Notes: a model not told the origin generated them from the sequence alone. A stretch of DNA of 64,000 nt from Cenarchaeum sp. (GCA_965242695.1 CBDESU010000002.1:320001-384000), one strand, 5' to 3'; shown: positions 9,532-14,721, numbered from the stretch's first letter. Numbers and translations are program-made.

Positions 9532-12500
9532 TCATTTTCTGCCTCGCCGCTTCCTGCGCCCCCGGCGCGAAGTGGCGCCCGACCGGCCGGTGCGCCCGCC
9601 GGTGCGGGTCGCGCGGCCGGTGCCGGCTCGGGGGCCGCCCGGCAGGCCCAGTGCCCTGCTGATCGACTTGGCGGTGCTGGCGCCCGACCGGCCGGTGCGC
9701 CCGCCGGTGCGGGTCGCGCGGCCGGTGCCGGCTCGGGGGCCGCCCGGCAGGCCCAGTGCCCTGCTGATCGACTTGGCGGTGCTGGCGCCCGACCGGCCGG
9801 TGCGCCCGCCGGTGCGGGTCGCGCGGCCGGTGCCGGCTCGGGGGCCGCCCGGCAGGCCCAGTGCCCTGCTGATCGACTTGGCGGTGCTGGCGCCCGACCG
9901 GCCGGTGCGCCCGCCGGTGCGGGTCGCGCGGCCGGTGCCGGCTCGGGGGGCCGTGCGGGCCGTGCGGTCTCGGGGGGCCGTGCGGGCCGTGCGGTCTCGG
10001 GGGGCCGTGCGGGCCGTGCGGTCTCGGGGGGCCGTGCGGGCCGTGCGGTCTCGGGGGGCCGTGCGGGCCGTGCGGTCTCGGGGGGCCGTGCGGGCCGTGC
10101 GGTCTCGGGGGGCCGTGCGGGCCGTGCGGTCTCGGGGGGCCGTGCGGGCCGTGCGGTCTCGGGGGGCCGTGCGGGCCGTGCGGTCTCGGGGGGCCGTGCG
10201 GGCCGTGCGGTCTCGGGGGGCCGTGCGGGCTCCAGCGCGAGGGTTACCAGGCCTCGCCGCGTGTCCCCTCCCACGCCCCGAGCCTCTTACGATCTTCGCG
10301 ATCTTGTCCAAGAACCGCTCCGGGTTGCCATCGTCCCATGCCTCCATGAGGGTGTCGGACAGCATTGGAAGCTTGGATGCAACCCCGGAGTAGTTGGTCT
10401 TGTAGAGCACCGGAAGTATCCTGTTCCTGTGTTTTCCTCGCAGCATGCCGCCAACCTCGATCATCGTGTAGATACTTTTGACGTACTCGGGGCTGACTAC
10501 GGCCACCACGTATGCAGATCTTTCCATTGCATCCATGATCGCGGCCGACACCTTGTCACCCATCGACAGGCCGGTGTCGTCGCGCCACACATGCAGTCCC
10601 CTGCGCTCAAGCCCCTCTTCAAGCTTTTCCGCAACGCGCCTGCCGTCCTTGCGGGCATAGGATACGAAGACGTCCCATCGGACGGCGCCGCGCCGCCGCT
10701 TCGTATCCATCGTGCGGCTCGCTGAGGCCTGCGACTTAAGCCTAGCGCCAGCTCGGGCCGCGCTGGTGCCGGTCGTGCGGGCGCGTGTGCGGGTTGTGCG
10801 GAGGGCGGCCCGGGCCGTGCCGGATCGGGCCGTTCTGGAGGCGGGCTTGCGGGCCGATCCGGCTCGGGTTGCGCGGGATCCCGATTGGGGCTTGCGGGCG
10901 GCGGGCTTGCGGGCGGCGGGCTTGCGGGCGGCGGGCTTGCGGGCGGCGGGCTTGCGGGCGGCGGGCTTGCGGGCGGGCGACCGGGTTGCGCGGGTGCCGG
11001 CGCGGGCCGTTCCGGCGCGGGGCTTGCGGGCGGCGGGCTTGCGGGCGGGCGACCGGGTTGCGCGGGTGCCGGCGCGGGCCGTTCCGGCGCGGGGCTTGCG
11101 GGCGGCGGGCTTGCGGGCGGGCGACCGGGTTGCGCGGGTGCCGGCGCGGGGCTTGCGGGCGGCGGGCTTGCGGGCGGGCGACCGGGTTGCGCGGGTGCCG
11201 GCGCGGGCCGTTCCGGCGCGGGGCTTGCGGGCGGCGGGCTTGCGGGCGGGCGACCGGGTTGCGCGGGTGCCGGCGCGGGGCTTGCGGGCGGCGGGCTTGC
11301 GGGCGGGCGACCGGGTTGCGCGGGTGCCGGCGCGGGCCGTTCCGGCGCGGGGCTTGCGGGCGGCGGGCTTGCGGGCGGGCGACCGGGTTGCGCGGGTGCC
11401 GGCGCGGGGCTTGCGGGCGGCGGGCTTGCGGGCGGGCGACCGGGTTGCGCGGGTGCCGGCGCGGGGCTTGCGGGCGGCGGGCTTGCGGGCGGGCGACCGG
11501 GTTGCGCGGGTGCCGGCGCGGGGCTTGCGGGCGGCGGGCTTGCGGGCGGGCGACCGGGTTGCGCGGGTGCCGGCGCGGGCCGTTCCGGCGCGGGGCTTGC
11601 GGGCGGCGGGCTTGCGGGCGGGCGACCGGGTTGCGCGGGTGCCGGCGCGGGGCTTGCGGGCGGCGGGCTTGCGGGCGGGCGACCGGGTTGCGCGGGTGCC
11701 GGCGCGGGCCGTTCCGGCGCGGGGCTTGCGGGCGGCGGGCTTGCGGGCGGGCGACCGGGTTGCGCGGGTGCCGGCGCGGGCCGTTCCGGCGCGGGGCTTG
11801 CGGGCGGCGGGCTTGCGGGCGGGCGACCGGGTTGCGCGGGTGCCGGCGCGGGCCGTTCCGGCGCGGGGCTTGCGGGCGGCGGGCTTGCGGGCGGCGGGCT
11901 TGCGGGCGGCGGGCTTGCGGGCGGCGGGCTTGCGGGCGGGCGACCGGGTTGCGCGGGTGCCGGCGCGGGCCGTTCCGGCGCGGGGCTTGCGGGCGGCGGG
12001 CTTGCGGGCGGCGGGCTTGCGGGCGGGCAACCGGGTTGCGCGGGTGCCGGCGCGGCTCATACGGCCACCCGTCCGCGCCCTGCTGCCGGCACGGCGATCG
12101 GCGGCAATCCTCCTCGCCCTCTGCAGGTGCACCAGTTCAACAACAGGAAAGGCGATGCCCTGTCCTCTTACGGCGCCCACCATTTCACTCCCCTGATCTG
12201 GCGCAGGCTGTTTCACATGCTGCGGGCGGGAGGCCCATTCGGGCCACTTTGCCTTTATGTACTCGAGCATCTCCTTTGAGCCGAGTGGCCTGCACGTGCT
12301 CCCGGCCCTCTTGAAAAAGTCGTACTTTCCTTCAGGGCGCTTTTTGAGTATTATGGGCCCATCCTTGGATGCAGTGACGGCGCAGTGCAGTACGTCGCGG
12401 CCGTCGGCCTCTACAATCTTGCTGTTAAAATACCCGCTGTGCTCGACTCCGAGATAATCCACTATTACGTTTGCCACCCATGCCAGCATCTCGTCCCTCT

Positions 12501-14721
12501 CCTTGCGCGACAGCCGTCCGCCATCGCGCGCAAGGCCTTCCGCCCTGCCGTCGTCGTCCACGCCGATCAGCAGATCGCCGCCCCTCGTGTTCACAAGGCC
12601 GCACAGCTCCTTGGCTATTTTTTCCTCCATTTTGGCCGGCTTCGAGGGGCCCTTCGGGCGCGAGCCCGGCCACGACTTGAACTCTAGCACCTCGGACTCG
12701 TCCCTGGACAGGAGCGACTTGTCTAGCTGCTCTGTGCCGTCGTCGGGCGCGGCCGCAGGCGGCGGCGGCGTGCGGCGCCGCATGGCGCTAGGAGCTGCCC
12801 CTATAAGCGATGACGTGGCCGGACCGAGCGACTCTCCCGCGTACCGGCCAATCGCCTTGTCCGGCAGTCCAAGATCTGCCAGGCAGGATATCCTCCCTAT
12901 GTGCGCGTCGGCGTTGCCGGGGTACAGTTCGAGTGCCCGGTCAAAGTGCACTAGGGCCTCCCTGTACAAGTTCAGGTCCTGGAGGGACAGCGCCTTGTTG
13001 TGGTGCGCCGCGGCGTTGCCGGGATCGAGCTTGAGCGCACGGTCAAAGTGCACTAGGGCCTCGCCTTCTCTGTCCAGGGCAGCTAGCGCGGTGCCCATGT
13101 TGTTGTACGCCGCGGCGTTGCCGGGGTCCAGCTTGACGACCTCCCTGTACTCCGTGAGCGCCTTGGAGAGGCGCCCCAGCGCCTGCAGGGACAGCGCGCG
13201 GCTGTAGCGCGGGGCGGGCTGCTGCGGGTCGATTTGAATCGCCCTGTCAAAGCAGGCAAGCGCCTCCCCATGGCGTCCCATGTCGGCGAGTATGCCGCCC
13301 ATGTTCGAGAGAGCTCGCGGGTCGCCAGGCTTGGCCGAGACGATCGCCTTGCAGCGCGGCAGCGCCTCGTCAAGGCGGCCCAGATCCCGCAGCAGATAGG
13401 ACAAGAGTATGTGGAAGTCCATGTTGCCGGGATCATGATCGACCGCCTGGCGGCAGTGTGCCAGCGCCTCCTCTTGCCGCCCCAGGGCGCGCAGGGAGAG
13501 CGCCATGATAAAGTGGGGCCTAGGATCCGATCGCTTCGCCTCAATGGCCCGGGCGCACAGTTGCAGGACCTCTTCGTGGCGGTCGAGTCGTTGCAGCAGA
13601 GCCATTATCGGCATGTACGAGTCGATGCGGCTGGGCGCGGCCTCGATCGCCCTGAGGCCGGGCCGTATGGCCTCTTCGTGGCGGCCCATCTTTGACAGGC
13701 ATGCGGACACCCTCTCGTGGGCCAGCGGATCTTCTGGCGCAATCTCGGCGGCCCTTTCCGCATGCCGCAGTGCCTCTTCATACCTCTCAAGGTGAAACAG
13801 GGTAAATGACGCGTTTTGGTGCGCCAGTGCGCTGCCGGGATCGAGTCTTGCGGCCCTCAGGTGGTGCGGCAGGGCCTCGGCGTGTCGTCCTAGCGCAGAC
13901 AGCAGGCGGCCCATGGCGGTGTGCCTGGTAGTGTTCGCCGGATCTGCCTCGGTTGCCGCCCTGCAGTGCTCTAGCACTTTTTCGTACAGGCCCATTCCCG
14001 CCATGGCCTGGGCCATCTTGAGGTGCAGGCTGGCATCGGGCGCGCCCGGCTCTGCAGCCATCTTGTAGGAGGCGTACGCTTCGTCGTATCTCTTTTCCTT
14101 GAAGAAGCGGTCGCCGCGGACCACGTACCCTTGGTGCTTTGACTTCCCCGCCATGCCACCGGCAGGCGGCCGTTCCACGGCCCGGCGCCCGTCCAGGCCG
14201 TCCGTCACGGCGTCAAGGAGGGCGTCCTTGAGCAGGGCCGCGTTGTGCACGTACTCGGGGTCCATCACCATGGGATCCGCCGCGTGCCACTCGGCCCTCT
14301 TTTGCGAGAGCATCCGCCGCGTGCCGACCGGGAGCGCGTCCCACTTTTCCTTGATGCGAGCGCGGCCCCGTGGCGCTATTTCGAACCGCATGGCGCTTGG
14401 ATCCCCGCTCCTCCCCGCTATCCTCACGCAGTTTGAGGAGGACAGGCTGTCAAGGGCGCGCTCGACGTCCTCGCTGCGCGTCCCGCCAGGCCCCGTCTCG
14501 AACATGACCAGATCTATGTCCAGCCCGGCGATCACGTCTCTCAGTGCCATGAGGACCTCGCCGGTCAGGCGGGCGAGGCCCTTGACGGGGCGCGGATCGG
14601 CGCGCAGGACCAGCAGGATGGCATCCTCGATCGCAAGCGATGTGTCGCCCATGCGCCCAATGAACCCGTCGATATCCAGCGGCGGGCGAGGCCCCGGGCG
14701 GCCCGCACCTGACTTCGTCAT
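9532..14721 (-). CDS. giant multidomain protein: SocA/DUF4065-like wHTH - 12-13 TPR - Schlafen AlbA_2 - histone H1-like basic repeats - TIR - Arg-rich repeats
   Basis: [12 protein letters not shown]...DV...LD wHTH; 34-aa TPRs ending [13 protein letters not shown]...[20 protein letters not shown] repeats; WDVFVSY...[19 protein letters not shown]; likely start ATG 14721. Confidence 0.8.
9574..9950 (-). repeat. 105-bp coding tandem repeat x3.5 ([35 protein letters not shown])
   Basis: units at 9574, 9679, 9784, 9889. Confidence 0.95.
9946..10229 (-). repeat. 27-bp coding tandem repeat x10.5 (ARTAPRDRT)
   Basis: perfect GGGGGCCGTGCGGGCCGTGCGGTCTCG units. Confidence 0.95.
10888..12056 (-). repeat. 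compound coding repeat of 15/57/72-bp units (ARKPA, RAGTA, RATRSP)
   Basis: near-perfect DNA repeats, all multiples of 3. Confidence 0.95.

Follow-up and report, generated by a model that had tools for sequence, protein, structure and literature searches.

We analyzed a 64,000-nucleotide (nt) stretch of the genome of Cenarchaeum sp. (GCA_965242695.1 CBDESU010000002.1:320001-384000; hereafter the window, with positions counted from its first letter) and found a single open reading frame (ORF), the giant ORF, whose product joins a winged helix-turn-helix (wHTH) domain, a TPR array, a Schlafen/AlbA_2 nuclease domain, a polycationic repeat tract, a TIR domain and an Arg-rich tail (Table 1). The reading that we favor, with moderate confidence, is that this ORF encodes a real composite archaeal antiviral protein, a functional fusion of two neighboring defense genes. 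The host is an archaeon; the rRNA of its genome (handle G000; 3.89 Mb in 2 contigs, 67% GC, 96% completeness) fits the archaeal Rfam models.

An earlier reading made from the DNA alone (the sequence-only reading) had proposed one ORF of ~1,730 residues here, and ORF listing and translation confirmed a single frame of 1,729 codons that runs uninterrupted across positions 9532-14721 of the minus strand. This frame remains open upstream to 15174, and we favor the start at 14721 because the GC pattern of the 14722-15174 extension (0.80/0.68/0.68 at first, second and third codon positions) is not gene-like in the frame of the giant ORF. By the same measure the four globular parts of the ORF are gene-like, with values of 0.72/0.51/0.84 for the wHTH part, 0.71/0.46/0.79 for the TPR part, 0.63/0.44/0.74 for the AlbA_2 part and 0.59/0.42/0.76 for the TIR part. 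The proposed order of wHTH, TPRs, AlbA_2, basic repeats, TIR and Arg-rich tail was also borne out by Pfam matches, motifs and an AlphaFold fold, and both of the catalytic motifs that had been named (E..LEFK and the Glu of YTMIEV) are in place, as ESEVLEFK from residue 675 and YTMIEV from residue 1418.

In the first half of the protein, TPR families matched with a best Pfam E value of 5.6e-47, and the array is 62-70% identical to those of paralogues and of the proteins P0005-P0007. The nuclease domain matched SLFN_AlbA_2 (PF04326) with an E value of 3.4e-11 across profile positions 1-117 of 118, scoring 44.2 bits against a cut-off of 25.3. Its Ex4ExK motif is intact (E675-SEVL-E680-F-K682) and conserved in 4/4 own-genus homologues, so that both the gathering score and the Ex4(E/D)xK signature of Schlafen/PF04326 proteins are present. 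A segment at residues 714-725, [12 protein letters not shown], contains Asp residues, for which a structural match to D45 of Avs9 and D248 of SLFN13 is putative. Matches of the AlbA_2 part to PDB sequences were marginal (3lmm at 0.023 and the Schlafen 5yd0 at 0.061). The portion of PMC13056530 that we consulted describes prokaryotic Schlafens (pSlfn) as antiphage tRNases that have varied fused sensors and Ex4(E/D)xK as the catalytic motif, one of them forming higher-order oligomers, and the consulted part of PMC12680541 gives AlbA_2 as the killing effector of Avs9.

In the second half, TIR_2 (PF13676) matched residues 1351-1442 with an E value of 6.7e-19 (69 bits against a cut-off of 28), and phmmer searches of the PDB matched 7uxr, AbTIR (8g83/7uwg) and PdTIR (3h16) at E values of 4.7e-13 to 1.9e-11. 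The Glu of YTMIEV, E1422, falls in the alignment column that holds the Glu of WTNYELDGL in AbTIR, a column shared by three other bacterial TIRs of known structure, and it is invariant in 5/5 aligned relatives. By our own count of the chain numbering, the aligned AbTIR residue is E208; according to the part of 10.1101/2023.05.19.541320 that we consulted, the AbTir TIR domain consumes NAD+ and E208A is inactive. The marks of an enzymatic TIR, a TIR_2 score past the gathering threshold and the catalytic Glu, are both found in the giant ORF.

The N-terminal domain matched no Pfam family at E<=10. We modeled it with AlphaFold on a 19-sequence alignment (a 5-sequence alignment was unusable, with a predicted local distance difference test [pLDDT] score of 42.5) and obtained pLDDT values >90 over residues ~27-150. 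The model aligned with 7yk3_D over 127 residues (VIA Z 9.3, root mean square deviation 4.1), and further VIA matches to ORC, RosR, F-93, TubR and PadR had Z values of 9.3-8; these are little above the stated VIA background of 7-8, and the match list is uniformly winged-helix. Foldseek returned MarR/PadR at an E value of ~3e-3. By this model the fold is winged-helix, which upholds the fold part of the earlier label, SocA/DUF4065-like wHTH; the SocA part is weak, as SocA_Panacea (DUF4065, PF13274) matched 1 of the 19 family members, at an E value of 0.021. DUF4364 matched four of the 19 (best E 0.0042). The family is rare: a profile search of 1.84 billion representatives recovered only 26 clusters at E<=1e-3. 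Its nearest neighbors in a protein atlas, which we treat as leads only, are clusters of archaeal hypothetical proteins and one of the MJ1567 family (0.92). Elsewhere the domain is fused to SIR2_2, HEPN, Peptidase_M78 or TPR alone, and in its own genome also to TIR-NTPase-HEAT.

The architecture does not look conserved; the protein seems to have arisen by recent fusion of two genes that occur apart in other settings. We refer to residues 1 to ~861 (wHTH-TPR-AlbA_2) as module A and to the part from M888 onward (basic repeats, TIR and tail) as module B. Module A recurs as a unit of ~900-930 amino acids (aa) in two paralogues of the same genome (contig C2, ~489-492 kb, par491, and 387-390 kb, par390; 52-53% identity by tblastn), in a 904-aa frame of one congener, G004, and in the metagenomic proteins P0003 (964 aa) and P0125 (912 aa). 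The repeats and the TIR domain are absent from all of these homologues, which end 35-50 aa past a conserved "KWP" motif, at the equivalent of giant ORF residues ~862-866. Module B has one close relative, P0150, a protein of 366 aa from a metagenomic contig of 1.9 kb, with 71% identity over the TIR part. P0150 begins with MSR at the position of M888-S-R in the giant ORF, has about one copy of the basic repeat unit before its TIR domain, and ends in an Arg/Thr-rich tail that is homologous but diverged, with the common element AGTGR..RT. Because module A recurs without B and P0150 carries B without A, the giant ORF is, as judged from sequence, most likely a lineage-specific fusion of two adjacent defense genes. 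Gene A would have lost its stop codon, the 26-codon spacer that follows would have happened to be open and, in the simplest reading, the basic head of gene B would have expanded from ~1 to 16 repeat units to form the linker. In P0005, from the same genome, and in the metagenomic proteins P0004, P0006 and P0007, a TPR array 65-70% identical to that of the giant ORF follows another N-terminal region, of 560 aa. By eye, this region has Cys pairs and a putative nuclease-like D...E.K motif, and P0004 keeps an AlbA_2 domain beside it and the TPR array.

The same comparison raises the possibility that the locus still makes two proteins, a TPR-Schlafen protein and a basic-TIR protein encoded as an operon pair, with module B translated mainly from M888 and read-through incidental and without any new function. 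P0150 starts at the Met equivalent to M888, an SD-like (Shine-Dalgarno-like) GGTGG lies 4 nt before this ATG (12058-12060), the module-A homologues stop just upstream, and each of the other three own-genus module-A genes has a TIR gene beside it or no more than 7 kb away (adjacent to par390, ~6.9 kb from par491 and ~3 kb from the G004 gene). We nevertheless consider this arrangement unlikely. There is no in-frame stop, so ribosomes starting at 14721 must make the fusion; the internal start is itself read from sequence; and the neighboring TIR genes are of another type (TIR-NTPase-HEAT), whose adjacency is not independent evidence because all of them lie in one TIR-rich region.

The basic tracts that had been noted are confirmed, with a net charge of +157 over residues 870-1340 and +60 in the C-terminal tail. 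The linker consists of 16 units of the form RAG(TARAG)[16 protein letters not shown], each of 19 or 24 aa or longer, and occurs nowhere else in the genome. In the tail, the 9-aa unit corresponds to a 27-nt unit in 11.1 copies with 98% matches, the motif TAPRDR occurs 10 times, and a 105-nt (35-aa) unit is present in 3.6 copies with 100% DNA identity. "Histone-like," the term used for these tracts by the sequence-only reading, fits their composition only: no histone family matched in the Pfam scan, and the only match of the repeats was to Extensin_1, below threshold. We also considered CRISPR or noncoding repeats and rejected both, as each unit length (15, 27, 57, 72 and 105 nt) is divisible by three and P0150 preserves the repeat unit and tail elements as protein. 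Elsewhere in the genome, two ORFs (G000:C1 1704493-1705464 and 1708528-1709739) contain in-frame Pro/Ala/Lys-rich tandem repeats, one of them membrane-protein-like by eye and the other globular at its C-terminal end. This genome seems prone to tandem repeats within coding sequence.

Assembly is difficult through long, GC-rich tandem arrays, and the exact protein, with either start, is absent from a public collection of 15 billion proteins; the true genome could accordingly have a stop between AlbA_2 and the repeats, or another repeat structure, with the present frame a consensus error. We regard such an artefact as very unlikely. An insertion or deletion would put the TIR part out of frame, and to produce the fusion a substitution would have to fall precisely on a stop codon. 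In addition, the assembly of the genome into 2 contigs at 96% completeness and the survival of the frame through ~2 kb of repeats argue for an accurate consensus.

The locus had been proposed as a single-gene system. Strictly it is not one, because a small Zn-ribbon ORF, read in another frame, overlaps the start codon of the giant ORF and appears to be translationally coupled to it. This ORF belongs to a family of ~155 aa with the signature CPFC...CxGC, and the ATGA overlap between it and a wHTH gene was present at 4/4 loci checked (the giant ORF, par491, par457 and G004). The genomes G000 and G004 hold eight copies, of which seven stand ahead of a wHTH N-domain ORF and one ahead of a restriction-modification pair; none was found in the genomes of the other 39 relatives searched. 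In the copies at par491, par457 and G004 and in that before the restriction-modification pair, GC at third codon positions (GC3) ranges from 0.88 to 0.90, and substitutions are fewest at second positions. The one hint of a wider family is a weak Lar_restr_allev match in 3/5 members (best E 0.0027), and the protein had no neighbor >0.88 in the protein atlas, again taken for leads only. A predicted complex of the Zn-ribbon and wHTH proteins of the par491 pair, made with their own alignments, scored 0.00, 0.71 and 0.00, with a median below the mark, and speaks neither for nor against an interaction. Upstream of the small ORF, the duplicated TTTATTA may be an archaeal TATA box; pattern scans of the region for terminators and promoters gave hits at chance frequency, and an Rfam scan of the window gave no match.

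Several observations weigh against a functional fusion. P0150 is not proven to be a separate gene, since its 1.9-kb contig leaves the upstream part out of view. Searches of 5.8 billion clusters found no protein with both AlbA_2 (PF04326) and TIR (0/3 matches to the TIR region also matched PF04326). Among 40 relatives searched with residues 1-874, a module-A homologue was found in the congener G004 only, and among 60 genomes of the family (a sample without G004) none had the TIR of the giant ORF at E<=1e-10. The Schlafen-TIR architecture is a singleton, seen so far in its own genome only, and the weight of the finding is limited by this. The repeats are 96-100% identical in DNA and therefore very young, possibly unstable. 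The Zn-ribbon copy upstream of the giant ORF is probably decaying, to judge from its TTG start, the loss of its second Cys pair, a GC3 of 0.79 and a flat distribution of substitutions relative to par491 (0.31/0.34/0.29). Finally, a frameshifted TIR-AlbA_2 pseudogene just downstream is a sign of decay around the giant ORF.

Two wider scans with the TIR part belong beside these results. An alignment of the domain found 80 loci among GTDB species genomes, a scan from which records of its own genome may have been left out; all were distant (22-43% identity) and nearly all bacterial, and with a narrow family hidden Markov model of limited reach none of the 80 had an AlbA_2 match. Scanned against metagenomes, the TIR module had a single short match, with 55% identity over 40 residues.

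The signs of decay also allow a reading in which the fusion arose neutrally, by chance loss of a stop and slippage of repeats in a redundant defense region, its product inactive or not made. The Zn-ribbon partner looks pseudogenized, frameshifts disrupt the TIR-AlbA_2 copy downstream, the small ORF is gone at par390 and the N-domain there is degraded, the genome has several redundant paralogues, and the arrays are nearly identical in DNA. We judge this reading to be distinctly unlikely, given that 5.2 kb remain open, including ~2 kb of repeats in which the frame would be lost with any unit length that is not a multiple of three, that the catalytic motifs are intact, that third positions differ most between the giant ORF and its paralogues (for example, 0.27/0.22/0.38 in the TPR part), and that the orthologue P0150 also has basic tails around its TIR domain.

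If the giant ORF does encode a functional fusion, its parts suggest how it might act. Recognition of a viral component by the TPR array, perhaps together with the wHTH domain and the Zn-ribbon partner, would drive a change in oligomeric state. The Schlafen domain would then cleave tRNA or other RNA, shutting down translation, and the TIR domain, active on self-association, would hydrolyze NAD+ or make a nucleotide signal. By binding a polyanion, nucleic acid or another, the cationic tails may gather TIR domains or template their assembly, and the outcome would be growth arrest of the infected cell. The sequence-only reading had inferred a sensor with two effectors tethered to nucleic acid by basic tracts. 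A more specific version, which we find doubtful, is a working dual-effector archaeal protein, with a tRNA-cleaving Schlafen and an NAD+-consuming TIR under one TPR sensor and expandable tracts that template TIR assembly on nucleic acid, as one output of an undescribed archaeal Zn-ribbon and winged-helix cassette that swaps effectors (Schlafen, TIR-STAND, SIR2, HEPN and M78 peptidase).

The winged-helix fold and the extremely cationic tracts would also suit a nonimmune chromatin or regulatory protein, with H1/AlgP-like tracts on a TPR scaffold. To this we give little credence: the protein has two defense-type enzyme domains with intact catalytic residues, it is set in a dense defense island, its N-domain is fused elsewhere to SIR2, HEPN and TIR-STAND, and the family was not found in 36/37 of the related genera sampled, a poor fit to a housekeeping role.

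Schlafen nucleases and TIR domains are immune effectors common to prokaryotes and animals. As a functional fusion, the giant ORF would place both on one archaeal polypeptide, apparently soon after they were joined, and would offer a natural example of how multieffector immune proteins arise by the joining of neighboring genes. The presence of basic tails on both sides of the TIR domain in two organisms suggests that polyanion binding may switch TIR enzymes on, and the wHTH/Zn-ribbon cassette with interchangeable effectors may mark an archaeal defense family outside current defense-finder models. The fused form is a singleton that may be short-lived; the cassette and the basic-tailed TIR module are most worth following.

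Table 1. Coordinates of the giant ORF, its parts, neighboring features and related loci (window positions unless a genome and contig or a locus handle is given)
Feature	Position	Strand	Details
Giant ORF	9532..14721	(-)	ATG at 14721, TGA stop at 9532-9534; 1,729 residues
Winged-helix N-domain	14272..14643	(-)	Residues ~27-150; AlphaFold2 pLDDT >90; VIA and Foldseek matches
TPR array	12802..14124	(-)	Residues ~200-640, roughly 13 repeats; Pfam TPR_1, TPR_2, TPR_11, others
Schlafen/AlbA_2 nuclease domain	12283..12699	(-)	Residues 675-813; Pfam PF04326
T-rich terminator-like site	12149-12161		Such sites no commoner than chance in the region
Open spacer, 26 codons	12061..12138	(-)	Residues 862-887; begins where TPR-AlbA_2 homologues stop
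Internal ATG, M888	12058..12060	(-)	SD-like GGTGG at 12065-12069; equivalent to P0150 start
Polycationic repeat tract	10702..12060	(-)	Residues 888-1340; 16 units, net charge ~+157
TIR domain	10282..10677	(-)	Residues ~1349-1480, with E1422; Pfam TIR_2
Arg/Thr/Gly-rich repeat tail	9535..10281	(-)	Residues 1481-1729; 9-aa unit x ~11; 35-aa unit x 3.6
Small Zn-ribbon ORF	14721..15191	(-)	157 codons, TTG start; stop codon 14718-14720; TGA overlaps ATG of giant ORF
Duplicated TTTATTA (TATA-box-like)	15213..15240	(-)	Just upstream of small Zn-ribbon ORF
Frameshifted TIR-AlbA_2 pseudogene	8453..9339	(-)	At least 2 frame changes, in-frame TAG
PDC-M23B, HamB-like DEAD helicase	15735-19052	(-)	1,105 aa; PADLOC E = 0; HamB profiles to 1e-58
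PDC-M23A	19049-20065	(-)	PADLOC 1.3e-39; no HamA model match
OLD/Gabija-like ATPase-TOPRIM	25128-26966	(-)	
2,037-aa ORF	27686-33799	(-)	Sole Pfam match HYR domains; no PADLOC match
PDC-S46	54018-56276	(-)	E 2e-198
SIR2_2 protein	57476-58642	(-)	
PDC-S68	58825-62574	(-)	E 1e-247
Further Zn-ribbon copies	G000:C2 491788-492258, 457740-458201, 565258-565782; L021:11211-11681		
P0005	G000:C2 308633-311750		TPR array and the other 560-aa N-terminal region

As annotated from sequence matches, the whole window is a dense defense island. The sequence-only reading had placed the giant ORF downstream of a Hachiman-like pair on the same strand, and the helicase of this pair does have HamB matches; its partner matches PDC-M23A and not HamA. 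The pair is better filed as the PADLOC candidate PDC-M23 than as Hachiman (HamA = DUF1837), and no mention of PDC-M23 was found in the literature. The 2,037-aa ORF with HYR domains is probably a surface protein. The pseudogene directly downstream shares 63% identity with the giant ORF in its TIR half and 72% in its AlbA_2 part, the latter being closer to the giant ORF than is the AlbA_2 of any intact paralogue. With this decayed copy, in the order TIR, then AlbA_2, TIR and Schlafen have been joined or set side by side more than once in the region.

We also made some observations on the wider genome and its congeners. At par390 (L018, G000:C2 387200-395300), the N-domain is degraded by many Gly/Pro/Ala replacements, the upstream small ORF is mostly deleted, and the gene lies 571 nt downstream of a TIR-NTPase-HEAT gene. 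Contig C2 (at ~300-600 kb, outside the window) holds all 7 AlbA_2 matches of the genome, 3/4 of its TIR-NTPase-HEAT genes and all 4 of its Zn-ribbon copies. C2 is 1.68 Mb long, the rRNA operon was found on C1, and congeners have genomes of 1.8-2.0 Mb or 3.2-3.9 Mb. A large accessory replicon with many defense genes is a possible identity for C2. In the congeners G002 and G004, several matches to TPR genes have a single in-frame TAG, which could reflect pseudogenes or TAG read-through; the giant ORF ends in TGA.

Among known systems, the pSlfn antiphage proteins (PMC13056530) resemble the giant ORF in carrying AlbA_2 with Ex4(E/D)xK and a putative sensor on one polypeptide, within a defense island. 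The top partners in the main text of that paper are HisKinase, HTH, DUF5929, Ig-like, DUF262 and TBP-like; this text names TPR 0 times and TIR only in its references, and its Supplementary Table 2 of 55 architectures may hold such a class. The experiments that it describes were in bacteria, whereas the host of the giant ORF is an archaeon. Avs9/SAMD9-SAMD9L, which the consulted part of PMC12680541 gives as AlbA_2-SIR2-STAND NTPase-TPR-OB, likewise combines AlbA_2, a domain of NAD+-consuming type and TPRs in one protein. Unlike Avs9, the giant ORF has no P-loop/STAND NTPase or OB fold detected by Pfam, has TIR in place of SIR2 and a different domain order, and carries long cationic repeats and a wHTH N-domain. 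No NTPase family turned up when the 1,729-aa protein was matched to Pfam and PADLOC, so that the STAND NTPase that defines Avs-type sensors is lacking; AAA_16/nSTAND3 does occur in the paralogous TIR proteins.

Closer relatives of the TIR part lie in the same genome, where TIR-STAND proteins (TIR-NTPase-HEAT, partial PDC-M54A) have TIR domains 38-56% identical to that of the giant ORF; one of them shares its wHTH N-domain and upstream Zn-ribbon ORF. These proteins differ from the giant ORF, which has neither the NTPase nor the HEAT repeats. The best PADLOC match of the TIR part was PDC-S66, a single-gene TIR candidate, at 1.1e-21 and over profile positions 110-260 of 282 only. The Thoeris ThsB profiles matched weakly (best 2.1e-8), and no adjacent ThsA gene (SIR2 or Macro with SLOG) was found in a scan that took in part of the small ORFs and the large neighbors, which are PDC-M23A/B, the OLD-like ATPase and unknowns; a SIR2_2 gene lies 43 kb from the giant ORF.

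In SPARTA/TIR-APAZ-Argonaute and in DNA-bound plant TIR filaments, a TIR NADase is switched on by assembly on nucleic acid. The resemblance to these systems is a functional analogy only: the giant ORF has no Argonaute or APAZ, and nucleic acid binding by its cationic tails is a guess. H1-like and AlgP-type KPAA repeats are, like the tracts of the giant ORF, Ala-Pro-Lys/Arg-rich tandem repeats of very high positive charge; the tracts differ from them in having no sequence-family match and in lying inside the protein, where they link two enzyme domains.

Neither the whole protein nor the wHTH-TPR-AlbA_2 unit is represented by a model in PADLOC v2, of which only the TIR-type models match. The suggestion that no described system has this architecture held in our searches, which returned no protein with both AlbA_2 and TIR, and in the literature, where neither a Schlafen-TIR nor a wHTH-TPR-Schlafen protein was described in the article texts covered. 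Prokaryotic Schlafen and TIR defenses are both of known kinds, and what appears to be new in the giant ORF is their combination on one protein with a polycationic linker.

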